From an uncultured Spirochaetota bacterium (GTDB lineage Bacteria; Spirochaetota; Brevinematia; Brevinematales; JAOACQ01), in the NCBI GenBank assembly GCA_963768055.1, contig CAVYGN010000002.1, positions 1,184,001 to 1,248,000 on the forward strand: a DNA stretch of 64,000 nucleotides. Reading direction: 5' to 3'. Of the stretch, positions 23,399 through 63,998 are shown piece after piece. The first letter of the stretch is position 1; every line of letters starts with the position of its first letter. Made by a program: the position numbers and the translations under genes. The notes beneath the pieces are model-generated. The model worked only from the letters and a program-made list of their open reading frames with translations, was not told where the DNA came from and did no database searches.

Positions 23399-23412
23399 GA
23401 GAGGCCTATTTG

Positions 23413-47075: not shown

Positions 47076-49890
47076 ATTCTATCTTCATTTCTTTGATCTT
47101 GTAAGTTAGAGTGGTTCGTTTTATTCCGAGTATGGCAGCGGCGGCTGATTTGTTTCCTTTCGCTTTGTCGAGGGCCCATTCGATAATTTTTCTTGAGTAC
47201 TGGTTGATCATTCCGTCATAGGTATCAACGGAAGAGATCTCAAGTCCGGCTTCGGGAACGGAATCTTCCACCGGAGCGGCATCCATGATCGAGGGGAAAT
47301 GGGTTAATTTCAAAACCCTTTTGTCACCCCTGGATACTGCAAGCTGCGACATAGCCCTGATGATAAAATTCTCCATCTCACGGATATTTCCCGGCCAGGA
47401 ATAGCTTTCGATTTTCTCTATTGCCGCCTGTTCGATAGTAAGATCAGGGGGAAGATCGAATTCCCCGGCATACTTTTTAATAAGGAAATCCGCAAGAATC
47501 GGTATGTCGTCCTTTCTTTCCCTGAGGGGCGGAATATCGATGACAAAGACACTGATCCTGTAGAAAAGGTCATCCCTGAAGCTTCCTTTTATTATCATAT
47601 CGTTCAGGTCCCGGTTTGTCGCAAATACGAACCTGCATTTCGAATTAACAACCATGTTGCTTCCGATAGGACTGTATTTATTTTCCTGCAGCAGTCTGAG
47701 AAGCTTCGACTGTATGTCGAGAGGCATTTCTCCAATTTCGTCGAAAAACAATGTGCCGCAGCCCGCCGCCTCGACTTTTCCTTCCCGGCTCGACTTTGCG
47801 TCGGTGAAGGAGCCTTTTACATGACCGAATAGCTCTTCTTCCCATAAGGTTCTCGGTATTGCTGCGCAGTTTACAGTTATAAAGGGGACATCGTCCATAT
47901 TGCCGGTATAATGTATTAGCTTTGCTATCAGTTCTTTCCCTGTGCCGGTATCCCCTGTTATTAAAATCGGTTTTGAAATCATTATTGCCTGATTGACTTT
48001 ATCGATAACATCCTGCATTTTTGAGCTTTGATAAACAATGGAGCTCTTTTCATCGAGCCTTTTTTCCTGTCTCTTGGAAATGTGTGTTGTAAGTTTTTGT
48101 ACTTCGCTTTCAACCCTGTCCTTCATGTATTTCATCATGTAAAATTCGGACGTCTTTTTCTTGACCTGGTGTTCGAGCTCTTCAGTCTGTTTCTGGATTT
48201 TCTGGAACATAATCGTGTCCATCAGGTTCTCATTGATCTTTGTCCGGATTATCTCGTACATCTTGTCGTATTTCGGCCCTAATTCCATCATTATAAATCC
48301 GAGCTGAGATTCCCTGTTGAACATATTTTCAAGAATATAAGTGCGGCGTTTTTCTTCTTTAATCAATCCGGCCGGAATGATCTCGCCAGGCCTGAATGCG
48401 ATGCCTCCATGCGGTAAGTCAAGGCGGGCCCCGTTTTGATAGCCGAAAATCAGGGCGGCTTCCTGCTTCGGGTTCTCGGGGTAATTGTACATGGATATGA
48501 AACAGCTGCCTATTCCAAAGGTTGTAAGGCTGGACTGAATAATATCGAACTGTTTTTCCAGATCGAAAGTACTGCTAAGTTCCGCTCCGAAATCGCTCAG
48601 TTCCTCCAGTTTTGCGGTTTCATGGATTTTTTGGAATAGCCCGTATTTCTGCATTGCATCATCGTTCATTACTTGGGCCTTATGGAAGAAGTATTCTGCG
48701 TTTACAAGTTCAGGTCCCTCGCCGATTAAAGACAGGGTATAACTCATGAATATTAAAAGGATGTTCTGAAGATGCCGGAGATTTCCTGTACTTTCGTAGC
48801 ATTCGTCTATGGCCCGGTTCCATGCCGAAAAGAATAAATTGCCATTCCCGCTTGAAAGGGCCGCCTCAAGCCCGTCAATGAGTCCCGGGGCGACAGAAAC
48901 GACCCAGCTGTAGTCAGGGTTAAAAGATTTAATTTCATCGGTAAAAGAGGAAATTATAAACTCCCGGTCATTTTTCAGATTGTAAGGCCGGTTGGTCTTT
49001 ATGCTGAAATGATCCGCCGAATAGCATCCGCATGATTCTCTTACTACAAACTCGGTGGATAGGCATGTGACCTGAGGTATTTCCTCTCCCCGAATGTTTC
49101 TCAAAAGAAGTTCGGCGGCAGTCCATGCCTGGTTGTATGTCGGCTGCCTGACTGAAGTGAGGTTAACGCTTTTACAATAGTCGATATCGTCAAAACCTGT
49201 TATCGGGATGAAATCGGACGATATTTTTCCCCTCGACTTAATTTCATTCATTATTCCCAGGGCCATAAAATCGTTTGAAGATACTATAGCGTCGAAATCG
49301 GCCTTTCTTTTATCCAGCAATTCTATAATTGCTTTTTTCCCCGAATCGATACTGAAATCGCCTTCATAGATCAGGTTTTCGTCGCAGGGCAGTTTATAAT
49401 AATCCAGCATTCTGCGGTACGTGTCAAGGCGCATACATGAATCGGTGTTAACCGGTAAACCCGAGATAAAAGCTATTCGTTTATAGCCATGTATCTCAAC
49501 CATATGCTTCATCACATCCCTGATGCCGGTTTCGTTGTCAACAGTTACGGACGGGATATTAAGCGGGTTCTTGCCAATGCTGACTGCCGGTATTCGCCGG
49601 AGTTTGAACATCATATTTTCTACCGCTTTTTTCCCGGCATAATTTTCGAGCGATGAAGTAGTGATTAAGAAACCGTCTATCCTGTCGTAGTCGATGAAAT
49701 CGAAGAGAACGTTCCTGTTTTTCTCCCACTTGAAGGGTGAATCGAGCTTTCCCCCGACAAAGCAAATCAAATTTAAATCGTTCTTTTCAGAAAACTCGGA
49801 AACACTGGAAAAGATGTCTGAGTGATAAGGCGAATAAAGCCAATCAATTAAAAGAGCTATAGTCATTCTATTTTTAAGAATATCCGGCAC
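47074..49890 (-). CDS. Sigma54-dependent activator (bEBP) with N-terminal LacI-type ligand-binding domain
   Basis: LacI-like (SVTVDNETG, HGYKRIAFI, NDFMALG, TGFDD, VVRESCGC) plus AAA+ (GDTGTGKE, GSFTDA, DEIGEM, WPGNIRE) plus Fis HTH. Confidence 0.92.
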   Translation of the reverse strand: MPDILKNRMTIALLIDWLYSPYHSDIFSSVSEFSEKNDLNLICFVGGKLDSPFKWEKNRNVLFDFIDYDRIDGFLITTSSLENYAGKKAVENMMFKLRRIPAVSIGKNPLNIPSVTVDNETGIRDVMKHMVEIHGYKRIAFISGLPVNTDSCMRLDTYRRMLDYYKLPCDENLIYEGDFSIDSGKKAIIELLDKRKADFDAIVSSNDFMALGIMNEIKSRGKISSDFIPITGFDDIDYCKSVNLTSVRQPTYNQAWTAAELLLRNIRGEEIPQVTCLSTEFVVRESCGCYSADHFSIKTNRPYNLKNDREFIISSFTDEIKSFNPDYSWVVSVAPGLIDGLEAALSSGNGNLFFSAWNRAIDECYESTGNLRHLQNILLIFMSYTLSLIGEGPELVNAEYFFHKAQVMNDDAMQKYGLFQKIHETAKLEELSDFGAELSSTFDLEKQFDIIQSSLTTFGIGSCFISMYNYPENPKQEAALIFGYQNGARLDLPHGGIAFRPGEIIPAGLIKEEKRRTYILENMFNRESQLGFIMMELGPKYDKMYEIIRTKINENLMDTIMFQKIQKQTEELEHQVKKKTSEFYMMKYMKDRVESEVQKLTTHISKRQEKRLDEKSSIVYQSSKMQDVIDKVNQAIMISKPILITGDTGTGKELIAKLIHYTGNMDDVPFITVNCAAIPRTLWEEELFGHVKGSFTDAKSSREGKVEAAGCGTLFFDEIGEMPLDIQSKLLRLLQENKYSPIGSNMVVNSKCRFVFATNRDLNDMIIKGSFRDDLFYRISVFVIDIPPLRERKDDIPILADFLIKKYAGEFDLPPDLTIEQAAIEKIESYSWPGNIREMENFIIRAMSQLAVSRGDKRVLKLTHFPSIMDAAPVEDSVPEAGLEISSVDTYDGMINQYSRKIIEWALDKAKGNKSAAAAILGIKRTTLTYKIKEMKIE

Positions 49891-49998: not shown

Positions 49999-50027
49999 TT
50001 GACTTCATGCCGGAAAAAATGTATAAT
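49999..50027 (+). promoter_or_regulatory. Sigma70-type promoter
   Basis: TTGACT-N17-TATAAT; its TTG is what the ORF track used as a start codon. Confidence 0.7.
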
Positions 50028-50064
50028 TTATGCGGAAAGTTTTTCAAAAACAGGAGAAAAAAAT

Positions 50065-51225
50065 ATAAACGGTTCGATAATACTGGATAAAGAAAGGGAA
50101 TTTCAAGGGAATATAACCGATGGTAATATATCCTTCGGCTTAGTGAAAGATAATAATTGCTGCAGATTAGGTTTGAGTTTGTTTGAACATATATACCCCG
50201 AGGCTGTCCTGGAAATATCAGGAAAAAAGTTTAGCGTTCATGGCTGGTATAATGAGATAGTAGTTATAGACGACAGAAAAGAAATATCGATTAAAATTAA
50301 AACGAACGCTGAAAATGTTAAAGTCAGTTGGTGGGATGACAATTCGGATGATTATAAAGAAAAACAAACTTTTATCAAAAACATTAAGCCTAAATATGAG
50401 TACTATTTAAATTGGCACGTCACCAGGAATTGCAATCTTAGATGCGATTACTGTTTTATCGATCTTAAGGAAAGAGCTTCCGATAAAATTCCTACAATAG
50501 ATATACCCAGGCTGCGGGATGTTTTATCGAGATTCGATAAGCAAGTAAACATTAATCTATCCGGCGGAGAACCCTTTCTTATAAAAAATTTCGTGGAAGC
50601 ATGCTCTATGATGACAAAAAATCATTATATAAGTATTGCAAGCAATCTGACAAGCGACAGGGTAAAAGAATTGATCGAAAGTGTCGATGTAAAGCATATC
50701 GATTTCTTTGTTTGCTCGTTTCATCCTATCGAACTCTCCAAAAGAAACGCTGTTGATAAATTCATGAGGAATTATTACTTAATAAAAGAAGCCGGAATAA
50801 ACGCCAGGTTCTCGATAGTTCTTTGGCCCCCGATCATTGAACGCCTGCCCGAATATTTAAAAATGATTAACGATAAAAGCATCAGAATCTATTATGAACC
50901 TTTCCTGGGATTTTACAATAAGATGGAATATCCCGCAGCTTACACCGAAAAAGAACTTCGTTCTCTTGGAATAATAAAAAAGGATATTGGACAGACTTTT
51001 TACAGAAAAGGGAACTACTGCAACGCGGGTTTTAATGCCTGCATAATATTAGCCAACGGAGATGCGATCGATTGTTTCGAGAAAAAGAACAAAATCGGCA
51101 ATATCTATGAAGATATAAATTTCTTAAAAAAGATGGCCAAATGCGATCAAAGATTCTGCAAAAATCCTGTTTCCAAATTTCTTCCTATGCTCTATAATCT
51201 GGCAAAAGACCGGATATCGGATTAA
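50065..51225 (+). CDS. Radical SAM enzyme with N-terminal WW-ending module and Twitch/SPASM-like C-terminus (start uncertain, ATA at 50065)
   Basis: CNLRCDYC, SGGEPF, CNAG...C...CDQRFC; AGGAG 8 nt before an in-frame ATA. Confidence 0.85.
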   Translation: MNGSIILDKEREFQGNITDGNISFGLVKDNNCCRLGLSLFEHIYPEAVLEISGKKFSVHGWYNEIVVIDDRKEISIKIKTNAENVKVSWWDDNSDDYKEKQTFIKNIKPKYEYYLNWHVTRNCNLRCDYCFIDLKERASDKIPTIDIPRLRDVLSRFDKQVNINLSGGEPFLIKNFVEACSMMTKNHYISIASNLTSDRVKELIESVDVKHIDFFVCSFHPIELSKRNAVDKFMRNYYLIKEAGINARFSIVLWPPIIERLPEYLKMINDKSIRIYYEPFLGFYNKMEYPAAYTEKELRSLGIIKKDIGQTFYRKGNYCNAGFNACIILANGDAIDCFEKKNKIGNIYEDINFLKKMAKCDQRFCKNPVSKFLPMLYNLAKDRISD

Positions 51226-52345
51226 TTCTGCCCGGCCTGCCTTTGTTTCTCATTCCTCAGAAATTCCAGCATATCCTTCCGGTCGATTCTTTTTGAAACA
51301 GGGTAGTATTTTGCGGTTATATAACCGTTCTCTTTCGGGAGCTGGATCCATATATCCAGATCAGTGTCCTCGACATAGTCATTTATGACAATTAACCGCT
51401 GTTTTTCAGGCGGTATCGCCAGTATAAGATTCTTCAAATGATCCAGCTTTTCTCTGTCCTTAAAATCTATTTCAATGTACTTCGTGCTATTATCTATATA
51501 TACTATATCTTTGTTGTTTTCACCCCTGAGTAATTCAAGGGCTTTCTCCTTAGGCAAATTCAAAGCCTCAGGGTGTTTTGTGACAAAGTACTCCGAATTC
51601 ATGTTATACCCGGGGATATTTTCTTTCTTGATTACAAGATCGCTTCTTTCTCCATGATATTGGTGGAAGACTTCAAGTCTTGAATTCACGACAATAGGGA
51701 TTTTTTTTTCATACAACATATAACCGAAGGCAATATCTTCCACTCCCCAGCCTTTGAAATTTTCATCGAATCCGCCAGCCGCTTCGAGGAATTTTCTGGG
51801 GATGGCCATATTGCAGGTAAAGACCTGCCCCCATGGAACATGATGGCGCTGTTGTTATAGGAAGCCGATTCGTAAAAAAAATATCTGTACTCCAGGATGT
51901 CGAAATTCCGGTTATCGAAGCGATTCTTTGTGAAAATATCGCCTCTTATTATTTCCTCGTAAGTGGTCGGCGTATTTAATAAAAGCCTGTTACCTATAAC
52001 GGCAATATCATTTTTCATCGAAAAGCATCTGTTCAGTTCGGATAAATAGTCCGGCCTTACGACAATATCAGAATCGATAAATACAATTATTTCACCTGCT
52101 GACTGCTTCCAGCCATGATTCCTGCATTTGGCCCGGCATGAATCTTTGCCCCTTTCCAGATAGAAATATTTTAAATCGTAATTACGGTTAACTCCTTTTA
52201 TATATTCTCCCGAATTGTCCGTCGAGCCGTCATCTACTACGATAACCTCATAATAGCCGTAACCCGGCTGGTAGTTTAGCGCCTCAAGAGTATTTTTCAG
52301 AAGAACCCTGTTGTTATAGGTTGGAATGACGAAGCTATATTTCAT
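51222..52345 (-). pseudogene. GT2 glycosyltransferase split by a one-base frameshift near 51835
   Basis: VIPTYN, VVDDGSTD, FIDSD in the 5' ORF; GGFDENFKGWGVED in the 3' ORF. One added base restores ...IMFPWGQVFTCNMAIPR. Confidence 0.88.
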
Positions 52346-52391
52346 GATTTACAAACTCCCAGTTCATTGGAATATTCACTGTTAATATATC

Positions 52392-52464
52392 AGTATAAAT
52401 TATAAAAATATCCCGGTCAATCTCTCTATAATATTTTGATTATAGTGCGGTTTTATGCTATTAT
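52392..52464. promoter_or_regulatory. Back-to-back sigma70-type promoters
   Basis: Minus: TTGACC-N17-TATACT (52420-52392). Plus: TTGATT-N17-TATTAT with a TGn extended -10 (52436-52464). Confidence 0.6.
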
Positions 52465-52513
52465 AAATCAAAGTCGGAGCTTGATATGGTTAGTATTTTC
52501 AAGGTGGAATTTT

Positions 52514-53710
52514 ATGAAAGAAGATATATTTACAGCTTTAAAGCAAAGAAACGAAGCGGCTGTTTTTGAAGTTAAAAATAAAAAAACATTTTTAATACCT
52601 AAGGAAAGTATCCGGTTCAAATGGGATCCATTTATCTGGAAACCGAAAATTGTGATAGGAACTGCTGTTATAGAAGGTGATTATCACAATTTAAGCCTGG
52701 AGTACAAAGATAGAAAAGAGGATTTTGAAGGCTGGTACAAGGAATTCCGGTTTGACCTGAAAAACCCGGATGAAGATATGATTTTTACCGTTGACAGTGA
52801 AACAAGTAGCAGAAATTTAAAGATCGAATGGTGGATCGAAACCTCTGCCCCCGATGAATACGATGCGGCGCTAAGCTGGGTTATTACCGAAAAATGCAAC
52901 CTTGATTGTGAATACTGCATCTTCCATGCGCACGGGGTTTATCATACGAATAACGAGGCTATTTCCGCCATAAGGATTGAAGATTTATTGTCAACGATTA
53001 ATAAGACCGGTAAAAAGTTTTTAATAACATTCACGGGCGGCGAACCTTTTCTTGTCCCCAATTTTCTAGAGGCTTGCCAGTGTATAAGTGAAAAACATTA
53101 TATAGGGGTGGTTTCCAATTCAGTCCATCCCGACATAAAAAAGTTTGCCGAAACGATAGATCCCGGCAAAGTAGCTAATTTTTTATCATCACTGCATATA
53201 AAAGAATTTAAAAAAAAGAACCTGACCCAAAAATATATCGATAATGTCCTGCTTTTGAAGAAGAAGGGATTTAACGTCATTTCTACAGCCGTAGCTTATC
53301 CGCCCCTTTTATCGGAGATCGTTCATTACAGGGAATATTTCACCTCCAGGGGCATCGTTTTTAATACGGCATTTTTTATAGGCGAATACGATGGCAAGGT
53401 TTATCCCGAATCTTATACTCATGAGGAAATAGAAAAGTTCGGCCTGGAAGACAGGAAAATAAATAAAATTTTATCGCGTAAAGGCATGCTGTGCAATGCC
53501 GGGTACAGCGCGTTCGCAGTATGGGGCGACGGGACAGTTATTGTTTGTTATGATGTTCCTTCAAAAAGAGGTCATATTTATAGAAATATAGATTTTGACA
53601 AATATATTATAAAATGCCCTTCGGAACAATGCTCCTGTCCATTCCCGGATAATTACAAGGCGCTGTTTAACAGGGCGATAAATGAAAAGGCGCCGGTTAA
53701 AAGCGTTTAA
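52514..53710 (+). CDS. Radical SAM enzyme with N-terminal WW-ending module (paralog of 50065)
   Basis: CNLDCEYC, TGGEPF, CNAG...C...CPSEQCSC; AAGGTGG RBS before 52514. Confidence 0.9.
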   Translation: MKEDIFTALKQRNEAAVFEVKNKKTFLIPKESIRFKWDPFIWKPKIVIGTAVIEGDYHNLSLEYKDRKEDFEGWYKEFRFDLKNPDEDMIFTVDSETSSRNLKIEWWIETSAPDEYDAALSWVITEKCNLDCEYCIFHAHGVYHTNNEAISAIRIEDLLSTINKTGKKFLITFTGGEPFLVPNFLEACQCISEKHYIGVVSNSVHPDIKKFAETIDPGKVANFLSSLHIKEFKKKNLTQKYIDNVLLLKKKGFNVISTAVAYPPLLSEIVHYREYFTSRGIVFNTAFFIGEYDGKVYPESYTHEEIEKFGLEDRKINKILSRKGMLCNAGYSAFAVWGDGTVIVCYDVPSKRGHIYRNIDFDKYIIKCPSEQCSCPFPDNYKALFNRAINEKAPVKSV

Positions 53711-53773
53711 GTATTAGTCTTTTGATAAGAAGGATATATTATTATTTAAAATCTGTATCTGGAGCTGGTAATA

Positions 53774-55453
53774 ATGAAAACGATAAAATTCGACCTGCCG
53801 AATGGATATAAGATTACCGCTATAGAAAATACAAAAACAGTGTTCGACGAAATCTGGTATGATAAAATATATGAAAGAGATTTTATCATTAAGGAGGGCA
53901 TGAATATAGTCGATATAGGCGGAAATCAGGGATTTTTTTCCTTATATGCGGCAAGTAAAGGAGCAAATGTTTTTACTTTTGAACCCGAAGAAAAAAATTA
54001 TCAGCTGTTATTGGAAAATATAAAAAATAATAATCTCGAGGGTAATATTAAGGCCTATAAATTCGCCGTAACGAACCATGAAGGTTATTTAAATTTATTT
54101 GTCCAGGATTTTAATGAATATGTTGCTTCTGCTATAGTGTCTACCTCGAAAGAATTTTTAAAAAACATCAACAGATATAATAACAGGATCGAAATTCAAA
54201 AAGCGGCTTGCATTACCTTAAATAAATTGATTGATAAAATTGGAATAAACTCCATTGACCTGTTGAAGATTGATTGCGAGGGGGCGGAACTGGATATACT
54301 GAGAAGCGCCTCAATCAAGCAGTTTAAAAAAATAAAAAATATTGTTATGGAAACCCATAGTAATTATAAGGAAAAAGACTTGCTCTTTTCAATTAAAGCT
54401 GCCGGTTTTAATATTGTATCTTATAAAAGAATTTTGAAAAAATCTCAGAACGGCTATTTGTTTGCTGAAAATAATAATATAACGGAAAGGCCATCCTGGG
54501 ATTATCCGATAGGTGTTTTAAAAGGGATTCCTTATTCTAAAATATATAAAAAAGTTACCCTCGACGCCTCAGGAAGTTTTTCTACCGCTAAAAATAGCGA
54601 TAGATTGATTTATAAATGGAAGATTGACGGTGAAGCAATAGTCAAGGCTGACAAACCTGTTTTAAAGTATTTATTCAATAAAGCCGGTATGCATAATATT
54701 GAATTGGAAGTCATAGCCAAGAACGGGAAGAGCAATAAAATCAATAAAAATTTCTGGATTATTAAAAAGTCGTATTTTAATACCGGGGAAGAAGAGATTA
54801 TACAAAATGATTATAGTGAAGACAAAATATATGCTTTTAAAGGGACAAAATATTTTTCAATTAAAATCCCTGAATCGATAAATCCAGACCTGATCGGTAT
54901 TGGAATTGAATATAAAGAGCCGAAGAATTATAGCGGCATCTTAGAATTTAATGATGATAAAAAAGAGTTAAAAAATGATTTCAATGAAATTCAGTTGTTG
55001 GATTTTCCTCCCGGACTGGAAATAAAATATTCTGTAACGGCAAATGATTTCGAAGTATTTAGAATCTTCTGGTGGTGGCGTGAATTTGAAGAGAATATAT
55101 TAATTAATCCCGAAGAAATAAATCAGGAGGCGGTTTTATTAAAGCAAAAAAACAATGCGGCCCTGTATGAAGTAAATAATAAAGAGACATTTTTAATATA
55201 CCACAAATATCTTCCAAACCGGTGGGATCCCGTATTCCGGAAACAGAAAATTGTGATAGGAATAGCAGTTATGGGCGGTGATTATCAAAATTTATATTTA
55301 GAATACAAAAATCAAAAAGAAAGTTTTGACTCCTGGTACAAAGAGTTCCGGTTTGATCTTGAGAACCCTGATGAAGATATTATTTTTATGATAATAAATG
55401 AAATAAAAAGTAATATTTTGAAGATCGAATGGTGGATAAATTTAACATCCTGA
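53774..55453 (+). CDS. FkbM-family methyltransferase + PKD-like domain + two WW-ending modules
   Basis: DIGGNQG, FEPE, LLKIDCEGAE, METH; VTLDASGS...YKWKIDG...AGMHNIELEV. Confidence 0.88.
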   Translation: MKTIKFDLPNGYKITAIENTKTVFDEIWYDKIYERDFIIKEGMNIVDIGGNQGFFSLYAASKGANVFTFEPEEKNYQLLLENIKNNNLEGNIKAYKFAVTNHEGYLNLFVQDFNEYVASAIVSTSKEFLKNINRYNNRIEIQKAACITLNKLIDKIGINSIDLLKIDCEGAELDILRSASIKQFKKIKNIVMETHSNYKEKDLLFSIKAAGFNIVSYKRILKKSQNGYLFAENNNITERPSWDYPIGVLKGIPYSKIYKKVTLDASGSFSTAKNSDRLIYKWKIDGEAIVKADKPVLKYLFNKAGMHNIELEVIAKNGKSNKINKNFWIIKKSYFNTGEEEIIQNDYSEDKIYAFKGTKYFSIKIPESINPDLIGIGIEYKEPKNYSGILEFNDDKKELKNDFNEIQLLDFPPGLEIKYSVTANDFEVFRIFWWWREFEENILINPEEINQEAVLLKQKNNAALYEVNNKETFLIYHKYLPNRWDPVFRKQKIVIGIAVMGGDYQNLYLEYKNQKESFDSWYKEFRFDLENPDEDIIFMIINEIKSNILKIEWWINLTS

Positions 55454-55460
55454 GCGCCGG

Positions 55461-57095
55461 TCAAGATCGTCTTTTAAGGCAGCCGTCCGCTAAATCATAT
55501 ATAATATCCATCATCTTAAGAATATCCGCGTTGTGAGTTATCGTCAGCGAAGTTATTCCCTTTTGCCGGGTATAAAGCAAATCGGTGATCTCCTTCTCCG
55601 TCTCCCTGTCCAGAGATGCTGTAATCTCGTCAAATATATAAATAGAACTATGAAAAGCGAGGGCCCGGGCAATACCGAGCCTCTGCCGCTCACCTCCTGA
55701 TATATCCACCAATCCCTCTGCAATAGTTGTATTAATACCCGCGGGCAGCCGGGCTAAAAAATCAAAAAGCCGGACCTTTTTCATCAAATCAAGGATTTCA
55801 TCATCTTTCAAACGTTTTTTAAGATCAATATTTTCCCGCAAAGTACCCGAATAAATCGGGATATCCTGGGAAATCATGACGATGCCTTTCCTGAAACTTT
55901 CAAGATCGAATGAGGAATGCGGAACTCCATCGATAAAGATACTTCCGGATGCCGGATCGAAGAGCCTGACCAGTAAAGCGGCAATTGTCGATTTACCTGA
56001 TCCGCTTTTACCGTAAATAGCGACATTTTTTCCATAAGGTATTTCAAGGGAAACATTTTTAAGTGCAAAATGGCTTTTTTGGTAAGAAAAGCTGACATTT
56101 TTGAATTCTATCTTTTGCCTGATACCATGAAATTCAAGGTCTCCGCCTTTTTCAATATCGTCGCTCAGATAATCGTATAAACGTTTTTTTGCACTTTTTA
56201 AACCCCGCTGGGAAATAAAGATGCCGGCCAGTTCATTTAAGGGTGTTATGAACCTTTCGTTAAAAAGAAGGCAGAAAACAAGCGTACCGATCGTAACGTT
56301 TCCCCGGACGACCTCGGGGATCATGAATATAAGTATGAATAATACGGGCGACCATACCATGATGTATATTATATTCCAGAGCATATTGCTGTAAAGAGAA
56401 TTTATTTTCTTTATATAGGACATTTTTGTGAGATTTTCATCCATATTTTGAATTACTTTCGATTTTAAAAGATCGAGCTTAATTGTCTTAATGCCAGAAA
56501 AAATATCCAGAAGATTTTTCCATAATACGTCGTATTCTTTCCCGATCTCGAAAGAGGTTGTTTCGTATTTTTTCCTCCAGATAAAAACCCATCCCGTAAA
56601 GGCTATAATAAAAATAAGATACATCTCGCTGATCAATGGAGCGAAATAAAGGAAAAAAACAAGCCAGAAACCTATTTGAACGAAATTCACAACCTCCATG
56701 ATCCTTCCCGACAGTCCGTCGGCGATGATCCTGCAATCTTCCATAGCCCGTTTTACGAACTCGCTGGAATTCCGCTCGAGAAAAAATGAGTATTTGTAAT
56801 GCATAACTTCAGTCAGAAAATCTTTACGTATATTTGAAACCAGATTCCTGTTGAGAAGCGACATAGTCCGGTCCCTTACAACAGTTAAAAGGTTCGTGAT
56901 GAAAACCGCGGCTATCGAAAGAACTGCTATTAGAATAAAAAGAGAGGTGTCCGGTTTTCTGAAAAGCTGGTCATAAATGATCTTCCATAGATAAAGACCG
57001 AAGGCTATGCTGACAGCAAGCAATAAAGAGATAAAAAATATAAATAAAAGAATAAAAAATTCTTTCTCAAGATATCGTATGAGATTTTTTTTCAT
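55461..57095 (-). CDS. ABC exporter half-transporter (TMD+NBD)
   Basis: GKSGSGKST, ISGGERQR, FDEITASLD. Confidence 0.92.
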   Translation of the reverse strand: MKKNLIRYLEKEFFILLFIFFISLLLAVSIAFGLYLWKIIYDQLFRKPDTSLFILIAVLSIAAVFITNLLTVVRDRTMSLLNRNLVSNIRKDFLTEVMHYKYSFFLERNSSEFVKRAMEDCRIIADGLSGRIMEVVNFVQIGFWLVFFLYFAPLISEMYLIFIIAFTGWVFIWRKKYETTSFEIGKEYDVLWKNLLDIFSGIKTIKLDLLKSKVIQNMDENLTKMSYIKKINSLYSNMLWNIIYIMVWSPVLFILIFMIPEVVRGNVTIGTLVFCLLFNERFITPLNELAGIFISQRGLKSAKKRLYDYLSDDIEKGGDLEFHGIRQKIEFKNVSFSYQKSHFALKNVSLEIPYGKNVAIYGKSGSGKSTIAALLVRLFDPASGSIFIDGVPHSSFDLESFRKGIVMISQDIPIYSGTLRENIDLKKRLKDDEILDLMKKVRLFDFLARLPAGINTTIAEGLVDISGGERQRLGIARALAFHSSIYIFDEITASLDRETEKEITDLLYTRQKGITSLTITHNADILKMMDIIYDLADGCLKRRS

Positions 57096-58839
57096 ACTTG
57101 TTATATTCCTTTGATTTTAAATAAAATGTATTATAACGGCCGCCTCTTTCGAGCAACTCTTTATGGCTGCCTTCCTCTACTACCCGGCCTTCTTCGAGAA
57201 CGAATATCCTGTCGGAATTCCTGGCCAGCTCGAGCCTGTGAGAAACCTCTATGATCGTAATCCCTTTTAACCTGCGAAGAGATTGTATAGTGCGGATTAT
57301 GCTTAACTCCGTTGCCGCGTCAAGAGCGGATGTTACTTCATCCAGGATCATAACCTTATTCCCGCGGGCAAGCATCCGGGCGAGAACCACTCTCTGTTTC
57401 TCTCCGCCCGAAAGGTTCTGGCCTCTTTCCAGCATGAGTGTATTTAGACCATCGGGAAGCTGTTTTATAAGAGTATCAAGCGAAACCTGTTCGCAGATCT
57501 CGTAAATTTGTTCATCGCTTAATTGACCGTCGGGATTGATATTGGCGCGAAGGGTATCGTTCAGGATAAAAGGCTCCTGGGGGACAACGCCGATGAGCTT
57601 TCTCAGGCTTCGGGTTTGAATATTGCGGATGTCCATGCCGTTGAGGAATATACTTTTTCCCGGCGCGTTGTATAGTTTAACAAGAAGCGAGATCAGGGTC
57701 GTTTTCCCTGCGCCCGAAGATCCCACAAGCGTACAGATGCTGCCGGTCGGGATAGAAAGGCTCAAATTCCTTAAAACAAAATTATCTTCCTTTACCTTGG
57801 GCATATTTCTTTTTTTTGACTTTCGTGCCGGGTATGAAAAATTCAGCCCGGTTATTTGAAGCCCTTCGCCTAACTCATTTATGATAAAGCCGTTGGTGGA
57901 TTCTTTCTTCAATCCCAGGAATGGGCGGATCTTTTCCCTGATCGGCCATAAAAAAAAACAGGCGGCGAAAGAATCAAAAAGAGTGCTGATGGGATAGATG
58001 ATAAGCCCCGCATATACAAGGTTGGTTATTATGTAACCTGGGGTATAACGGCCGGCTAAATATCCGTAGTAAGCAAAAACAAAGAAAACGACTAAACATA
58101 ACCGGACGGGCAATGATGCTCCTATGGCAAGAAGAGATTCGAATAATGCCGTTTTTACCGCCAGACGGCGTTCCCGGGTATTCAATTCCTCAAGTTGCCT
58201 GGTCTGCTCTTTATAAAGCCCGTAGCATTTGACTTCCCTGATTTTTAAAAACAGATTGTAAAAATGCTTGAAAATATCGTCGCGCCATTTCAATGAAAGT
58301 TTGCTGTAGTATGTTGAAAGTTTACTGAATAACCGGGTCCATAAAAAATACATCAGGATTGCGGACGTAAAGAGAAGGAAAATTTTAACTTCAAAAAAAA
58401 ACAGAAGGACGCCCAGTATTATTATAAGCTGCAATGCCGACATCAAAAAACGCAGAGAGCTCAAGACAAGATCCGAAAATTTTTCCATATCCGTTCCTAC
58501 CAGACCTATAATGGAGCTCGCCGAATGCCGTAGATAAAAAGAGTACGGATAATCGAGGAATTCATCCATGGAGCTCAGGCGTATGTTACGCGCGACGCCT
58601 GTACGGACATGGAATAAAAGAAACTGGATTACTACGTTAATAGCAATAGAAAAAACGCAGATCAGGATGATGATTCCGCAGAGCCTATACAACAGCAGTT
58701 CTGAAAAGCGGGGGATCAACTCGTCAAAAATAAGCTTGAATACCAATGGGCCCAGTAAGGTTACGCCCGCATAGACAATTGAAAGAAAAAAGATCAGAAT
58801 TATTAAATATGCATATGGTTTAAGAAATCGGAAAAGCAA
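57067..58839 (-). CDS. ABC exporter half-transporter (TMD+NBD)
   Basis: GSSGAGKTT, LSGGEKQR, LDEVTSALD; no N-terminal peptidase domain. Confidence 0.92.
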   Translation of the reverse strand: MLFRFLKPYAYLIILIFFLSIVYAGVTLLGPLVFKLIFDELIPRFSELLLYRLCGIIILICVFSIAINVVIQFLLFHVRTGVARNIRLSSMDEFLDYPYSFYLRHSASSIIGLVGTDMEKFSDLVLSSLRFLMSALQLIIILGVLLFFFEVKIFLLFTSAILMYFLWTRLFSKLSTYYSKLSLKWRDDIFKHFYNLFLKIREVKCYGLYKEQTRQLEELNTRERRLAVKTALFESLLAIGASLPVRLCLVVFFVFAYYGYLAGRYTPGYIITNLVYAGLIIYPISTLFDSFAACFFLWPIREKIRPFLGLKKESTNGFIINELGEGLQITGLNFSYPARKSKKRNMPKVKEDNFVLRNLSLSIPTGSICTLVGSSGAGKTTLISLLVKLYNAPGKSIFLNGMDIRNIQTRSLRKLIGVVPQEPFILNDTLRANINPDGQLSDEQIYEICEQVSLDTLIKQLPDGLNTLMLERGQNLSGGEKQRVVLARMLARGNKVMILDEVTSALDAATELSIIRTIQSLRRLKGITIIEVSHRLELARNSDRIFVLEEGRVVEEGSHKELLERGGRYNTFYLKSKEYNKYEKKSHTIS

Positions 58840-58848
58840 GGGATATTC

Positions 58849-60570
58849 CTATTCAGGCCACCAGGTAACCTGGTAAACCCGTTTTTGTGGAACTTCAACC
58901 CGGAATTCCATTAAGCTTTTGATGTCATTCCCGGTAAAGCCGAACTCTTTATAACCGTCATTGAGGGGGAAAAAGCGATCCCGGAATATCATTTTTCCTT
59001 CAAGCGATTTTCCCGTTGAATCGGATGAATGCACGGAGAAACATATCTTTATGCAGGCGGGTTCCCAATCTTTAGGAAGGTCCGCCAGGCTGACAACCAG
59101 AGCGGCTTCGTCTTTTATGCGGCAGATATGAGCGATAGATTTCTCACCCATGCTGCATTTCTTTGATCTGTCGCAATCAAGCTGTATCGGAAGAACTTCT
59201 TTCGGATTTTCTTTTGCAAACCAGCGCAGCTGGACATGAAAAGAAGATTTTGACTCGAGTGAAAAGCAGATGTCGCTTTCCTTAGGGAAACCGGGGAAAA
59301 ACATCTCCTGGTAAATTTCCTTTAACTCCGTCGCATTTCCATTAAAATCAAAAAGAATGCCTGAAGGTTCAGGATTTTTTGAAAAACCGGAAAGACTTAT
59401 TCCTATTCCGATAGCGCTGTAATGCCAGAAACTGGATATATCAGGAGATGGAATGACAAAATCCTCTTTTTCACGGACATCGAACTCATATCGCTGGTTT
59501 ATAACAGATAAAGGAAAAGCATTTTTCCGGGAAAAGTAGTCTTTCGAGAAGAGCCAGATCATCTTTTCGTCGCTATCACTGGCCTCATCCCTGTTTTTTT
59601 CCTTCGGGTCGATCACCTCCAGCGATACCCGATGAGAACCTTTTTCCATATTTTCAATTGTTATAACGGGATTGGGAGTAATTTCTCCCTGCAAACCGTC
59701 TATTCCGAATATGTATTGAAGATTCCCGCTGTCGGGGTTTATTACTGAAAAGCTCTGGCTTGCGTCGGCGATTATTTCACTCCCCTGGGCAGCTGTTTGC
59801 GGCAGGTTTAAGATAGCGACGGGGTTTTTACGGCTGTTTTTGACCTTTTGGGAGGCGCGAACGGCATATAAATATCCGACAGCAAAAATGTCATTATCTC
59901 TTCTTTGAATTTTATCATAAGTAACGACATCGAATCCCATATCCTGGACGCGCCGGTAGAGCGATTTCTCAGGATAGGCTTTGTGGGTTTCCATGACGAT
60001 CCGATCGACTCCTTCAAGATCATGCGAATCGGCGCCTGAAAGAATGTTTAATTCCGACCCTTCGGTGTCGATTTTGAGAAGAGAAATCCGTGGACTGTTT
60101 ATCTTATTCAAAAATCTTTTTAAGGTCAGGGCTTTGACCTTCGTTTTTTTAATCTTAGGCCTTTTATATTCCTTGAGAACATTCAGCAAAGGAAGAGATG
60201 CGGTAATGAGCCCCGAAGAGCTTAAATCTTCGAATTCGGGAATAAAGAGCGAAATAAATCCGTCTTCTTTCGATACTGCACACTGGAAAGGAGTAACTCT
60301 ATCCGAAAGTTTATTCCTCTTTATATTCGCACATAACAGATCGTAATTAAGCTTGCCGGGTTCAACTGCATAAACGAAAGCCCCGCGGTGTGCAGCGAAA
60401 AGAGAGAAGATGCCCTGGTTCGCTCCGAGATCGATAACTATATCTCCCTCGGCGATATGGTAATCCCTCTCGTAGAAAAGATTATCCCAGATCTCTTTTA
60501 TTATAGTTTCGGTATTGGGAATTAATTCGACAGTATAGCCATTCGGTAAGGAATGTATGGTTGTCTTCAT
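58849..60570 (-). CDS. FkbM-family methyltransferase + PKD-like domain + two WW/WF-ending modules (paralog of 53774)
   Basis: DLGANQG, VEPG, LLKIDTEGSE, METH; IIADASQS...KGSHRVSLEV. Confidence 0.88.
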   Translation of the reverse strand: MKTTIHSLPNGYTVELIPNTETIIKEIWDNLFYERDYHIAEGDIVIDLGANQGIFSLFAAHRGAFVYAVEPGKLNYDLLCANIKRNKLSDRVTPFQCAVSKEDGFISLFIPEFEDLSSSGLITASLPLLNVLKEYKRPKIKKTKVKALTLKRFLNKINSPRISLLKIDTEGSELNILSGADSHDLEGVDRIVMETHKAYPEKSLYRRVQDMGFDVVTYDKIQRRDNDIFAVGYLYAVRASQKVKNSRKNPVAILNLPQTAAQGSEIIADASQSFSVINPDSGNLQYIFGIDGLQGEITPNPVITIENMEKGSHRVSLEVIDPKEKNRDEASDSDEKMIWLFSKDYFSRKNAFPLSVINQRYEFDVREKEDFVIPSPDISSFWHYSAIGIGISLSGFSKNPEPSGILFDFNGNATELKEIYQEMFFPGFPKESDICFSLESKSSFHVQLRWFAKENPKEVLPIQLDCDRSKKCSMGEKSIAHICRIKDEAALVVSLADLPKDWEPACIKICFSVHSSDSTGKSLEGKMIFRDRFFPLNDGYKEFGFTGNDIKSLMEFRVEVPQKRVYQVTWWPE

Positions 60571-60587
60571 ATTTTATACTCCATTAA

Positions 60588-61556
60588 TCAGTTTTTTGCG
60601 GGCATATTCCTGTACCAATCATCCATCGGCAGGATATCTGCCGCGTTTCCATTCCTCACTTTATCAGGCCAGAAGGGATCGGAGACTAGAGGCCGGCAAA
60701 GAGCAACTAAATCCGCATCGCCATGAACAAGAATCCCTTCCGCGCTCTCCGGGGAAGCGATCCTTCCTGCGCCTATGACCGGAATATCGAGAATTTTTTT
60801 GATGGCGGAAAAATAGGGGGCAAAGCAAGCCTCCGGCTGTGTTTTATCCGGGCATTCGGAATTTTTTGGGCTCAAAGCCGTGCCGCCGGCAGAAACATCA
60901 AGGCAGTCCAGGCCGGCCTTTTGAAGCAATAAGCTCACAACCTTAGCCTCGTCGAGGATGAAACCCCCCGGAATAAGGTCTGTGGCGCTTATACGGTAAA
61001 AGAGAGTGAAACCGGAACCCACTCTCGATTTAATCGCTTCGACTGTCTCAATTTGGATAGATGACCTGGCTTCGAGCGGGCCGTTTAAGCGGTCTTTGCG
61101 TCTGTTGATCGCCGGAGAAAGGAGGTGCATGAAAAAACTATGGTGCGCGCCATGTATCTCCATTCCCGGAAAGCCTATTTCTTTAAGCTTTTCAGCGCAC
61201 TCGGCAAATGATTCGGGAATGGCGGAAATTTGAGATTCATTCATAGTGTTCACCCAGTCTCCCACGCCTGAAAAAACCTGGGGAATGATCCAGGCTCCTT
61301 GATCGCGGCATTCCGACATCAGCCTTTGCGAAGCTTCGCGAAAGGAGGGTGTATATAAATCCGAAAATCCGCCCGGAGTCGGCACAGGCATAACGATAAG
61401 ACCGGTTCCTCCCCTGGCGCGTTTTATATAGAACTCCCTGAATTCTTCGGACTGCGCCGGAATATTCAGGTATACCGGAGCGAACACGATCCGGTTGGAT
61501 AATTCAAAGCCGTCCCGAAGCTTGAAAGATGAAAAAAGCCGCCCATTTGTTTCCAA
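60588..61556 (-). CDS. NADH:flavin oxidoreductase (Old Yellow Enzyme family), atypical active site
   Basis: LSNRIVFAP, KRARGGTG, EIHGAH, LSPAINRRKD, LCRPLVSDP. Confidence 0.88.
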   Translation of the reverse strand: METNGRLFSSFKLRDGFELSNRIVFAPVYLNIPAQSEEFREFYIKRARGGTGLIVMPVPTPGGFSDLYTPSFREASQRLMSECRDQGAWIIPQVFSGVGDWVNTMNESQISAIPESFAECAEKLKEIGFPGMEIHGAHHSFFMHLLSPAINRRKDRLNGPLEARSSIQIETVEAIKSRVGSGFTLFYRISATDLIPGGFILDEAKVVSLLLQKAGLDCLDVSAGGTALSPKNSECPDKTQPEACFAPYFSAIKKILDIPVIGAGRIASPESAEGILVHGDADLVALCRPLVSDPFWPDKVRNGNAADILPMDDWYRNMPAKN

Positions 61557-61558
61557 AA

Positions 61559-62551
61559 TTAAACGCCTCCCCCATTAGTCCGAGCGGAAGGATTTATCTT
61601 TGTAACCATTGTATCGGTTATTCCCCCTGTGCACCATTCTTTACTGCAAACATGGGGTTCCGAAGGAAAATTCAATTCGGGATCGCTGATGTTGCCGATC
61701 TTTCCGGAATCACCGCACCAGCTCCTGTAGATATCTCCGCTTATATCGACGACAAGAAGTTCAAGACCTATGTAGCAGTTCCATCCTGGCCATGCATGCT
61801 TATTCTGAGTAATAATATCTCCCGGTTTAGTCAGTTCCTCGGAACCGTCGTCGTATACGAGCTTCATCAATCCGCGGTAGCTATCCCTCGTCCTTTTAAG
61901 TTTCAGCCTGCTGTTGATATCATGGCTTGCTTCAACGATCTGCTTCCTTTGTTCCGGAGTATAGGGATAAGGTTCGATAAAATCCCTCAGCACTATCTGA
62001 AGATCGATAGTTACATCGTCTGTTTCATTCAAGACCTTAAATGCGGCGTCAAGACATTCCTGAAAGTGGTCGGGATGAACCATTATGTTCACATGAGTAT
62101 AAACATCGCTTTTGATAAGGTTTATGACATTGATGAAGTGGTTAAGCTTAGTAAATTCGACGTGATAGCTTAAGCTGGCTTGAAAGAGATATTTTTTTGC
62201 CTCTTCCCAGAATATCAATTTCGGAGATCCGTTACTGCTGATGCTTACCTTCTGACCATTCTCTTTCTGACTGCGTATCAATGTGATAAAGTCCTTGAAT
62301 AGGGTCACTTCGCCGCCTGTATATAAAAAATATACTTCCTTTTTGAGTTTCTTTACGTAATGATCGATAATACGCTGGGAAAAGTCCATTATTTTATTGA
62401 TCGGCATGAAGGGGTAGGTCCCCGCATGCGTTCGCGGAGGGCAATATGAGCATAGAAAATTACACACATTGCTCACTCCCCAATCAACGATAAGTATATT
62501 CTCAGTCTTTTCGAACTGGTGCCTGAGCATAACCACATTTTTATCTTTCAT
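61559..62551 (-). CDS. Radical SAM enzyme with Cys-containing C-terminal extension
   Basis: CNFLCSYC, TGGEVT, ISSNG, WNCYIG...WCG...CSKEWC. Confidence 0.9.
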   Translation of the reverse strand: MKDKNVVMLRHQFEKTENILIVDWGVSNVCNFLCSYCPPRTHAGTYPFMPINKIMDFSQRIIDHYVKKLKKEVYFLYTGGEVTLFKDFITLIRSQKENGQKVSISSNGSPKLIFWEEAKKYLFQASLSYHVEFTKLNHFINVINLIKSDVYTHVNIMVHPDHFQECLDAAFKVLNETDDVTIDLQIVLRDFIEPYPYTPEQRKQIVEASHDINSRLKLKRTRDSYRGLMKLVYDDGSEELTKPGDIITQNKHAWPGWNCYIGLELLVVDISGDIYRSWCGDSGKIGNISDPELNFPSEPHVCSKEWCTGGITDTMVTKINPSARTNGGGV

Positions 62552-63621
62552 AATATAGATTCCTTATAGATCTTTACGACGCTATCCGCTTCCGTATTCT
62601 CAACCTGATGCAGGTTTATGAAATCGATATCCGCTATGATTTTATTGCTGATGAAACTATCGAATAGCTTTGGCGGGTTCGCTGTCCTGTATTTTTCCAG
62701 AAGATCGGGATAAAAACGACGGAATATTGACGTCACGATCGTTGACCGGTGCATTGGTGATTCCTCCCGGGGCTCTATAGTATTGAATTTTTGTCGGCTT
62801 TTGAGAGGGTAGAAAAAGGGACAATCAAAAAAATTCTCTTTCGGATCGGGCATACAGCTTTCAACCCCCGAAATTTTACAAGCCGCAGAAAATTCTTTGC
62901 AATATTCGAGACGCGCTGAAACTATTTCATCGATATCGCTTACCTGCTTTGTTAAAAAGTAGCATTGGATGGCGCTAAGACGATAATTGCAGCTCGCAAC
63001 CTCGAGTTTTCTCCGCGGTAAGGAAGGGCTTAATCCCCAATCTGATATAGCTTCGCATTCGGCTGCAAGCTCGGGGTCATTGGTGCTGATAAGGCCCCCT
63101 TCCCCGGAATTGATGATCTTTGAGCTTTGAAAGCTGAATGTGCCTGCATTCCCAAACGCGCCGGCCTTTATTCCATCCGCTGAACATGAGAAAGCCTGTG
63201 CGCAGTCTTCTATCAGGGCTATATTCCTGCTTCTGCAGTAATCCCTAATCTCGAAAATTTCCCGATTCATAAAACCGGAGAGATGGACGAGAATAACCGC
63301 CTTGACCCCGGACAGTTCCCTTTTTTTAAGAGATTCCAGGGTTAAACCAAAATATTCGGGGCTTACATCGGCAAAAACGGGTATCAGGCCGCAGTCAGCT
63401 ACGGCTGTCGCCGTTGCAATAAAAGACAGGTCGGGAATAATTACAAGGTCCCCCCTGTTTAATCTAAGGCCGCGCAGGGCAACTTCAATAGCAATGGTCC
63501 CATTGGTTACAGGTATAACATATTTACAACCAAGATAAGAGCTTATGCTGCTCTTGAATTCATGTATAACCTCTTCCTCAGGCTTGAAATGGGGAATAAA
63601 CGACTTAATATTATATTTCAT
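62548..63621 (-). CDS. DegT/DnrJ/EryC1/StrS PLP-dependent aminotransferase
   Basis: NGTIAI, SFIATA, IEDCAQA, FSFQSSKIINSGEGG. Confidence 0.92.
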   Translation of the reverse strand: MKYNIKSFIPHFKPEEEVIHEFKSSISSYLGCKYVIPVTNGTIAIEVALRGLRLNRGDLVIIPDLSFIATATAVADCGLIPVFADVSPEYFGLTLESLKKRELSGVKAVILVHLSGFMNREIFEIRDYCRSRNIALIEDCAQAFSCSADGIKAGAFGNAGTFSFQSSKIINSGEGGLISTNDPELAAECEAISDWGLSPSLPRRKLEVASCNYRLSAIQCYFLTKQVSDIDEIVSARLEYCKEFSAACKISGVESCMPDPKENFFDCPFFYPLKSRQKFNTIEPREESPMHRSTIVTSIFRRFYPDLLEKYRTANPPKLFDSFISNKIIADIDFINLHQVENTEADSVVKIYKESIL

Positions 63622-63623
63622 AT

Positions 63624-63998
63624 TTAAACCGGCATCATACGGTTTAATTCGTTTTTAAAGTCATTTAAAACGAAAGTATATTGAAGCTTGCCGTTTTTAT
63701 CTACATATGGCGGAAGGAGTATGTAAAATTGATTTTGGCCGGAAATACTGCAAACTTCCTTCGGGTCTAGCCTTATCCAGCGCTGGCCTTCATTGCTGAG
63801 AAAATAAACGGGTACAGGTAATGTGTTTACAAACTTATTCCTATCCTGGGTGCCGCGTATGCAGAGCCCGCGAATTGAATCGGAATTGAACCAGGCGAAA
63901 TGGTACTTATTATGGGGCCATTCCTGCCAGTCTTCGATCCTGATATTATAATGAATATTTTGGATTATATCGCGATAAACCGATAAAGAAGGGGTTTC
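63624..63998 (-). CDS. 3' part of a hypothetical protein entering from outside the window
   Basis: Manual translation: open 124-codon frame ETPSLSVYRD...NELNRMMPV*, ending 2 nt before the aminotransferase ATG. Confidence 0.7.
   Translation of the reverse strand, partial: ETPSLSVYRDIIQNIHYNIRIEDWQEWPHNKYHFAWFNSDSIRGLCIRGTQDRNKFVNTLPVPVYFLSNEGQRWIRLDPKEVCSISGQNQFYILLPPYVDKNGKLQYTFVLNDFKNELNRMMPV

Follow-up and report, generated by a model that had tools for sequence, protein, structure and literature searches.

An uncatalogued family of predicted beta-sandwich modules on radical SAM enzymes and FkbM methyltransferases of a Spirochaetota bacterium

Substrate targeting is well described for enzymes that make ribosomally synthesized and post-translationally modified peptides (RiPPs), through the RiPP recognition element (RRE), and for glycan-degrading enzymes, through carbohydrate-binding modules (CBMs); far less has been described for the cytoplasmic enzymes of glycan tailoring. 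The RRE, a PqqD-like domain, is a winged helix-turn-helix of three helices and a three-stranded sheet. A C-terminal CBM is carried by Wzt of the O-antigen ATP-binding cassette (ABC) transporter, and the collagenase ColG bears its accessory domains in the order PKD, collagen-binding domain (CBD), CBD. The ligands of the ColG CBDs are proteins, as are those of the GOLD domains, which bind protein cargo; the ColG CBDs also have calcium-binding residues in an N-terminal linker. Here we describe a module of ~105 residues that occurs six times on two radical S-adenosylmethionine (SAM) enzymes, rSAM1 and rSAM2, and two FkbM methyltransferases, MT1 and MT2. All four are encoded in a stretch of 64,000 nucleotides from an uncultured Spirochaetota bacterium (assembly GCA_963768055.1, contig CAVYGN010000002.1, positions 1,184,001 to 1,248,000), which we call the window and number from its first letter. 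All six segments belong to a single, hitherto uncatalogued domain family of non-catalytic, predicted beta-sandwich modules. We judge the chances to be about even that these are anchors that hold tailoring enzymes on a shared extended acceptor, a ligand that we infer.

Six copies of one domain family

The radical SAM enzymes carry the module at the N-terminus (rSAM1_N and rSAM2_N) and the methyltransferases carry two in tandem at the C-terminus (an A copy, then a B copy; Table 1). A preliminary description of the window had counted six copies on four enzymes of two classes, and this count is correct. The classes are Radical_SAM (PF04055; 49.5 bits for rSAM1 and 50.2 bits for rSAM2 against a cutoff of 29.5) and FkbM (PF05050, 67.8 and 62.8 bits for MT1 and MT2 against 22.7; TIGR01444, 98 and 87.1 bits against 37.7). 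In MT1, Methyltransf_21 (PF05050) covers residues 47-199 with E 1.7e-18, and TIGR01444 matches with E 6.6e-28. No NCBIfam equivalog scores above its cutoff on rSAM1 or rSAM2, the best being STM4011 with 45-54 bits against 200.

The residues encoded at 52538-52837 (rSAM2_N) and 55139-55438 (MT1_B) align without a gap and are identical at 62 of 100 positions, precisely the number that had been reached by hand count. The corresponding DNA is identical at 219 of 300 positions (73%), with the same codon used for 47 of the 62 identical residues, and this similarity ends sharply at the module borders, at about 52520-52850. BLASTP of rSAM2 residues 17-138 against MT1 residues 428-559 gives 50% identity with E 2.5e-38.

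The other four copies are more divergent, with 16-26% identity among themselves and to this strong pair in the six-copy alignment (A1), and the weakest, rSAM1_N, scores about 22 bits. Such figures would favor a reading in which there is no domain family at all, one local duplication having produced rSAM2_N and MT1_B and chance having produced the likeness of the other four segments. Every copy, however, exceeds all shuffled sequences in two test designs. Hidden Markov models (HMMs) built from the other five window copies give each left-out copy 22.4-96.7 bits, whereas the best of 3000 shuffles does not exceed 11.5 bits; in this design the alignment columns were fixed with the left-out copy still present. 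Profiles that contain no window sequence, built from 56 module instances of non-window methyltransferases, recover all six copies at 21.7-86.2 bits, the best of 6000 shuffles reaching 12.7. The lowest scorer is rSAM1_N both times (22.4 bits leave-one-out, 21.7-22.3 bits with the external profiles), and against a profile of A-type copies only it fails (8.3 bits). The six-copy profile also brings up 57 further proteins at E<=1e-3 from 1.84e9, and the AlphaFold2 models of the module are confident. Shuffle tests, database retrieval and window-free profiles thus refute the single-duplication reading, to which we give practically no credence; the four divergent copies are genuine. One of them had been placed at about 54820-55080, which is the right place, although a frame opened at exactly 54820 is the wrong one and has stops in its translation.

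Sequence conservation within the family is low. Mean column identity is 25-38%, and no residues other than one Trp and one Glu come near to invariance. A scan of 12,366 open reading frames of at least 50 residues, from the window and the 80 loci described below, separates true matches (at least 29.4 bits) from the next best score (7.1 bits) and finds no seventh copy in the 64-kb window.

The module was put forward as a domain not recognised by eye, and the catalogues searched do not recognise it either: no well-known Pfam domain and no NCBIfam model matches it. Pfam (2025 copy) has no match at E<=10 to the module regions of the window proteins, and a scan of 16 single modules at the same threshold gave six singleton hits and no family matching the module. 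On the window proteins NCBIfam supplies catalytic-domain models only and leaves the module uncovered. At E<=10, nothing covers rSAM1 and rSAM2 over their first ~135 residues or MT1 and MT2 over their last ~225, apart from a weak PKD-like signal ahead of the modules. Profile searches of PDB sequences with the module (A1, A4) returned nothing at E<0.1 and no collagenase, and an ESM Atlas search with MT1_B returned no usable match. A word-indexed protein search found only the window's own protein when given a single module and six proteins when given the 16-module alignment, all six named by catalytic domain only. Where source names are present, they read "FkbM family methyltransferase" or "radical SAM enzyme" and nothing more. 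No account of the module appears in those parts of the literature on FkbM, radical SAM, PKD and PPC combinations that were available to us.

Predicted fold, carriers and descent

The preliminary description had supposed a beta-rich module, and AlphaFold2 agrees, with all-beta models at pLDDT 86-90. A single MT1_B (16-row alignment; pLDDT 86.3, pTM 0.79) is modeled with eight strands, the last of which holds the invariant first Trp of the C-terminal "WW". The MT1 tandem (40-row alignment; pLDDT 89.6, pTM 0.72) is modeled as one compact A-B unit, with MT1_A at high confidence and a linker of pLDDT about 88-91. Foldseek against the PDB places the single module nearest to the ColG CBD s3b (1nqj_B; TM-score 0.61/0.62, rmsd 3.2 Å over 111 columns, E 2.4e-3), with the PPC domain of Bacillus anthracis collagenase (5sv5; TM-score 0.53/0.58) also among the top matches, whose E values run from 2.4e-3 to 4.7e-3. 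For the tandem, the top match is the ColG tandem CBD (5iku; E 1.4e-6); its TM-score is low, about 0.35, because the two domains are oriented otherwise in ColG. Further tandem matches are the tandem extracellular beta-sandwiches of the SID1 transporter, a tandem CBM51, CUB domains and neuropilin domains. Based on these models, the module is predicted to be a jelly-roll-type beta-sandwich, closest to collagen-binding/PPC domains. In structure, the eight-stranded, all-beta models are not RRE-like. Because the module stands at the extreme C-terminus, the C-terminal sorting domain of the type IX secretion system and cohesin/dockerin-type modules were also considered and set aside; they have no Pfam match (E<=10 for the window modules and the 16 modules, E<=1e-4 for the 59 proteins below) and are absent from the listed Foldseek matches, and the carriers in the window are cytoplasmic enzymes.

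The likeness to ColG extends to domain order. The FkbM methyltransferases carry a fixed C-terminal cassette of a PKD-like segment, an A copy and a B copy, the same order as in ColG. In MT1 the PKD-like segment scores 20.5 bits on PKD_4, under the cutoff of 27, while the family member P0059 is above both cutoffs (PKD_4 29.5 bits, PKD 24.0 bits). Positions 255-323 of the methyltransferase family profile (A3) give a weak match (E 0.005) to chains 4u7k and 4u6t, which we take to be ColH PKD-like domains.

The family is real but rare. Among 1.84 billion representative proteins, the six-copy profile A1 finds 59 at E<=1e-3 and 39 at E<=1e-10. An FkbM domain is present in 38 of the 59, nearly all of which are 553-577 residues long and have two modules that run right up to the C-terminus. 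Among the 38 is P0022 (913 residues, locus L003:9683-12421), a single chain in which an FkbM methyltransferase and a PKD-like region precede modules A and B, and a radical SAM domain follows them. Five of the 59 are radical SAM proteins without FkbM: P0001 (which is rSAM2), P0024 and P0047 carry one N-terminal module, and the SPASM-type enzymes P0021 and P0031 carry a C-terminal tandem. No third module lies between B and the radical SAM domain of P0022, and none lies in the N-terminal 431 residues of P0021. A single family 2 glycosyltransferase (GT2), P0050, has a C-terminal module. Two carriers are very large. P0053 has Peptidase_M43, VWA and PKD domains, the module as its last 100 residues and, by eye, a hydrophobic, signal-peptide-like N-terminus, and P0049 has FGE-sulfatase and InlB-B-repeat domains. 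The 12 proteins without a Pfam domain are mostly short and may be fragments, although two are stand-alone modules of 112-115 residues; P0051, with no domain at i-E<0.01, is likely an artefact. The shuffling between enzyme classes that had been suggested for the window thus goes further, onto a GT2, SPASM-type radical SAM enzymes, a methyltransferase-radical SAM fusion and large multidomain proteins, and the module is a mobile, non-catalytic accessory domain. What had been called an unrecognised domain is indeed a new family, but its fold is a familiar one: with its fold nearest to CBD/PPC domains, it adds a family to a familiar kind of accessory domain and is not a novelty in kind. The observation stands, and its reach is wider than first described.

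The copies also differ in descent. A quick maximum-likelihood tree, drawn from 95 module instances, gathers the 27 methyltransferase A copies into a single group (SH-aLRT 92) and sets the B copies (33 rows) on the opposite side; separate A and B profiles type held-out copies correctly and in agreement with the tree. This makes the tandem an old arrangement and A a specialised copy found on methyltransferases alone. By HMM typing, the copies on the GT2, P0053 and the SPASM proteins are B-like. Those of rSAM1, P0024 and P0047 form a separate group, whereas rSAM2_N pairs with MT1_B in a subgroup of the B copies (SH-aLRT 87-90) and scores higher on B than on A. The close likeness of rSAM2_N to the adjacent MT1_B suggests that it was taken from it recently, by copying or gene conversion. 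rSAM1 and rSAM2 are collinear paralogues whose alignment, at 29% identity over 353 residues, runs into the module. Most simply read, a module was already present in their ancestor, and the rSAM2 copy was later overwritten from the B copy of neighboring MT1. P0022 has a radical SAM part that resembles neither rSAM1 nor rSAM2 closely, so at least three radical SAM lineages have acquired the module.

The cluster and related loci

Table 1. Module copies and surrounding genes in the window
Feature	Position	Strand	Details
rSAM1, radical SAM enzyme, module N-terminal	49999..51225	+	408 aa from TTG start; PF04055 residues 141-277, E 7e-13
rSAM1_N, B-like, weakest copy	50032..50346	+	HMM envelope, residues 12-116
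GT2 glycosyltransferase, two overlapping frames (51686-52345, 51222-51809), without module	51222..52345	-
rSAM2, radical SAM enzyme, module N-terminal	52436..53710	+	424 aa (database form P0001 398 aa); PF04055 residues 149-289
rSAM2_N, B-type, near-copy of MT1_B	52508..52846	+	HMM envelope
MT1, FkbM methyltransferase: methyltransferase domain, PKD-like, module A, module B	53774..55453	+	559 aa
PKD-like domain of MT1, weak match	54548..54739	+	PKD_4 E 5e-4
MT1_A, A-type	54776..55087	+	HMM envelope, residues 335-438; A 63.1 vs B 42.2 bits
MT1_B, B-type, stops 2 residues ahead of stop codon	55106..55447	+	HMM envelope, residues 445-558
Two ABC exporters, each with fused transmembrane and nucleotide-binding domains (TMD-NBD)	55461..58839	-	544 and 590 aa
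MT2, FkbM methyltransferase, C-terminal modules A and B	58849..60570	-	573 aa; Methyltransf_21 E 5.6e-17
MT2_B, B-type, reaches C-terminus	58852..59172	-	HMM envelope, residues 467-573; B 93.9 vs A 42.0 bits
MT2_A, A-type	59206..59538	-	HMM envelope, residues 345-455; A 89.9 vs B 49.1 bits
Upstream genes of MT2 operon: flavin oxidoreductase of old yellow enzyme (OYE) type, rSAM3 (no module), DegT-type sugar aminotransferase, unknown protein cut by window end	60588..63998	-

The neighborhood is one of glycan or deoxysugar tailoring: a DegT aminotransferase, radical SAM enzymes, an OYE oxidoreductase, a GT2 and MsbA/PglK-like exporters. The oxidoreductase of the MT2 operon matches Oxidored_FMN (Pfam), and the aminotransferase has LegC-, PseC- and DesI-like NCBIfam matches, all under cutoff. 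The exporters resemble MsbA, PglK and bacteriocin exporters (NCBIfam), again all under equivalog cutoffs. By eye, none of the window carrier enzymes has a signal peptide. rSAM1 is 80% identical to P0024 and 33% to P0047; rSAM2 is 33% identical to P0047. MT2 is 47% identical to its orthologue in locus L005 and 30% to MT1.

Two gene models call for comment. The rSAM1 frame opens with TTG at 49999 and has no in-frame ATG ahead of the module, which leaves its true start uncertain; the start of P0024 aligns with an ATA codon at 50065, after an AGGAG motif. The GT2 is split: its first piece matches Glycos_transf_2 (E 2e-24) and its second Glyco_transf_7C (Pfam), and both pieces match one continuous GT2 of 811 residues in L002. 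The homology breaks near 51810, and at about 51701-51709 there is an A9/T9 run; the split gene is either a pseudogene or an assembly error.

Related loci were collected, one genome per species, with two patterns from the 11-row alignment A3, both of which lie in the methyltransferase domain; the resulting 80 loci therefore cover FkbM proteins with these two motifs, and module carriers other than FkbM proteins fall outside the search. Seventy-five of them match MT1 in the catalytic domain only and have no module. A match along the whole of MT1 is limited to L001, L002, L003 and L005, with a partial one in L004. All five come from metagenome-assembled genomes (MAGs) of Spirochaetales or Spirochaetaceae, and we tentatively regard module-bearing methyltransferases as restricted to Spirochaetales.

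L005 has the same operon as the window's minus strand: an unknown gene, DegT, radical SAM, OYE, a methyltransferase with two modules and two ABC genes. Identities between the two are 47-82%, with 59-62% for the exporter pair and 54-82% for the upstream genes, and the methyltransferase is the least conserved. A sigma-54 activator adjoins the cluster in both (window 47074-49890, minus strand; L005:3-1526). Its AAA+ part is 61% identical between them, but the sensors differ, being LacI-type periplasmic-binding-like in the window and GAF in L005. Matches to the sigma-54 -24/-12 consensus with one mismatch number two in the window, where 2.25 are expected by chance, and neither lies beside cluster genes. 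In L002 and L003, which are glycan clusters, the transferases are of GT2 and GT7-like types and are accompanied by ABC-2 transporters, a carbamoyltransferase and a polysaccharide deacetylase. Three family methyltransferases, P0003, P0016 and P0059, score above the cutoff of Pfam V_cholerae_RfbT; RfbT is an O-antigen methyltransferase.

The region of rSAM1, GT2, rSAM2 and MT1 (window 50001-56000) has a G+C content of 0.35-0.37, against 0.41-0.47 on either side, and for this reason we see these four genes as an added part. Their close counterparts were not found in the related loci, the syntenic L005 included. Together they look like an acquired or variable insert beside a conserved operon.

Elsewhere, the window encodes a signaling protein of 1979 residues (14457-20396, minus strand) that combines a Ser/Thr protein kinase, an AAA_16 ATPase, GAF, PAS and a histidine kinase core; two response-regulator genes, one with an HD domain, come after it. 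Two further genes encode proteins of kinds more usual in eukaryotes, an EXPERA (EBP-like) family membrane protein (22254-22802, minus strand) and an ankyrin-repeat protein (23410-24132, plus strand).

Proposed role, rivals and known systems

We propose that the module would hold a cytoplasmic O-methyltransferase, a radical SAM enzyme and a glycosyltransferase on a common extended acceptor, and that such a shared anchor would let several enzymes work on one acceptor. The likeliest acceptor would be a glycan or lipid-linked glycan that is built from modified deoxy or amino sugars and exported by the paired ABC exporters. That these enzyme classes act together around the module is indicated, in the manner of a Rosetta stone, by the methyltransferase-A-B-radical SAM fusion P0022. 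Copying of MT1_B onto rSAM2 would give two adjacent enzymes equal binding specificity. A bolder form of this proposal, which we hold to be doubtful, is that glycan tailoring in the cytoplasm has its own acceptor recognition element in this module, the sugar-polymer counterpart of the RRE. As a portable beta-sandwich, it would lend whatever catalytic domain it is attached to (methyltransferase, radical SAM or glycosyltransferase) specificity for one lipid-linked glycan, would be matched between neighbors by gene conversion (as with rSAM2_N and MT1_B) and would be a cassette borrowed from secreted PKD-CBD-CBD enzymes. If the module does bind an acceptor, it would offer a means to predict which tailoring enzymes share a product, would aid in finding such clusters in Spirochaetales and would help to re-target enzymes by module swaps. 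Either way, the family merits a profile model, as about 220 residues of the ~560-residue proteins named "FkbM family methyltransferases" are currently unannotated.

Several observations weigh against anchoring on a glycan. The ligand is one that we infer purely from fold and context. Protein-binding folds such as GOLD and the CBD appear equally near in the structural comparison: p24 GOLD domains and a domain of the iota/CDT binary-toxin B component score nearly as high as the ColG CBD. For the single module, Foldseek gives no match at E<=1e-3, the ColG CBD is 7% identical, and Pfam PPC (PF04151) has no row at E<=10, whether for the module regions or for the 16 modules scanned singly. For these three reasons homology to PPC/CBD is not established, and we treat the likeness of the models to the collagenase CBD as a resemblance of fold and architecture. 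The invariant first Trp may be purely structural. The analogy with collagenase also crosses compartments, because PKD/PPC-type cassettes are typical of secreted enzymes and the carriers here, lacking a signal peptide by eye, depend on SAM and iron-sulfur clusters. The SPASM-type carriers P0021 and P0031 hint at peptide modification, of which such enzymes are more typical. Genomic context is uneven as well. The closest relative of MT1 (L001:2092-3644, Spirochaetaceae MAG, 49% identity) has a frameshift within its B module and adjoins a GH8 gene, and the methyltransferase of L004 adjoins dockerin-bearing GH11 and SASA enzymes; these two loci have glycoside hydrolase surroundings without conserved context and are not glycan-biosynthesis clusters. 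Finally, the tree on which the A and B lineages were drawn has weak deep nodes.

The main rival is module-mediated enzyme assembly, in which the modules would bind each other or a common scaffold, for example the ABC exporter, and so assemble the methyltransferases and radical SAM enzymes. The tandem is modeled as a compact unit (pTM 0.72), which means that modules are able to pack against each other, and single-copy carriers have no partner in cis. The P0022 fusion, which shows both enzyme classes working together, the GOLD domains among the structural neighbors and the 62%-identical pair on adjacent genes also count in favor of assembly. We nevertheless regard assembly as unlikely. The methyltransferase is the sole module carrier, within up to 10 kb on each side, in L002, L004 and L005 (three of the four intact loci) and in the broken L001, and the only other carrier of L003, the radical SAM domain, is fused to the methyltransferase; a module-module partner is thus often absent. 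Both radical SAM copies are B-like, which leaves no A and B pair to rebuild the tandem in trans. Such a rebuilding by an A-like rSAM1_N and a B-like rSAM2_N was considered and dropped on this HMM typing. The module also ends large, apparently secreted proteins, where enzyme assembly is improbable. A homodimer prediction for rSAM2_N (two copies, alignment A5) scored 0.01 against a mark of 0.42, with controls not run, and speaks neither for nor against binding.

Recognition of a peptide or protein substrate, for example a precursor of RiPP type or a glycan-bearing surface or flagellar protein, would give the module the role of an RRE with a different fold. A radical SAM enzyme, a methyltransferase and a bacteriocin-type ABC exporter are a common RiPP gene set; the best NCBIfam rows of the exporters include NHLP bacteriocin exporters, yet these matches start after the NHLP peptidase domain and lie far under cutoff. 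The SPASM-type carriers and a FapA flagellar gene in L003 are compatible with such substrates, as are structural neighbors (ColG CBD, GOLD) that bind proteins. However, the compact cluster, with intergenic gaps of 8-110 nt, contains no candidate precursor gene, rSAM1 and rSAM2 have no SPASM match (Pfam), the DegT, OYE, GT2 and epimerase neighbors indicate sugar chemistry, and the fold is all-beta instead of a PqqD-like winged helix. We therefore hold this reading to be decidedly improbable. Very unlikely, in our estimation, is a module with no specific ligand, a structural spacer, stabilising domain or membrane-proximal tether that would place catalytic domains, for example near lipid-linked substrates. 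Low conservation, with one near-invariant Trp and one Glu, would fit a spacer, as would the conserved Trp pair at the very C-terminus of the methyltransferases and the failure to find a recognisable binding motif. Yet repeated moves onto unrelated catalytic domains and large multidomain proteins are the behavior of a binding module, and among the sampled methyltransferase copies (27 A and 33 B rows) the two lineages, A and B, have stayed distinct.

Anchoring on a shared acceptor, the reading that we prefer, can be set beside several known systems. With the RRE the module shares the functional analogy first drawn for it, that of a small domain common to different tailoring enzymes of one cluster, radical SAM enzymes included. 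The p24-family GOLD domains (5azw, 5gu5, 7rrm) are beta-sandwiches of similar size (TM-score 0.46-0.68), but they are eukaryotic and lumenal, with 12-17% identity and no sequence-level match to the module. The CBMs are, like the module, small beta-sandwich accessories on glycan-acting enzymes or transporters, and the tethering role proposed here is alike; the tandem CBM51 of Streptococcus pneumoniae GH98 (2ygm) matches the tandem model with E 7.8e-6, and no CBM family in Pfam matches the module at E<=10. Most CBMs are found outside the cell, on enzymes that degrade glycans; the module carriers here are cytoplasmic. Within the related loci, the GT7-like transferases of L003 carry Laminin_G_3 (ConA-like, lectin-type), another, unrelated beta-sandwich on cytoplasmic glycan-building enzymes; it is a known Pfam family and differs from the module in size and in carrier enzymes. 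The collagenase domains offer a parallel in architecture. The s3a and s3b CBDs of ColG from Hathewaya (Clostridium) histolytica, like PPC (PF04151), are non-catalytic beta-sandwiches of ~110 residues, as the module is predicted to be, and both they and the methyltransferase modules stand in tandem at the C-terminus, after a PKD-like domain. ColG is a secreted peptidase and the carriers of the window are cytoplasmic SAM-dependent enzymes; in P0053, the module is found in PPC-type placement, at the C-terminal end after Peptidase_M43 and PKD.

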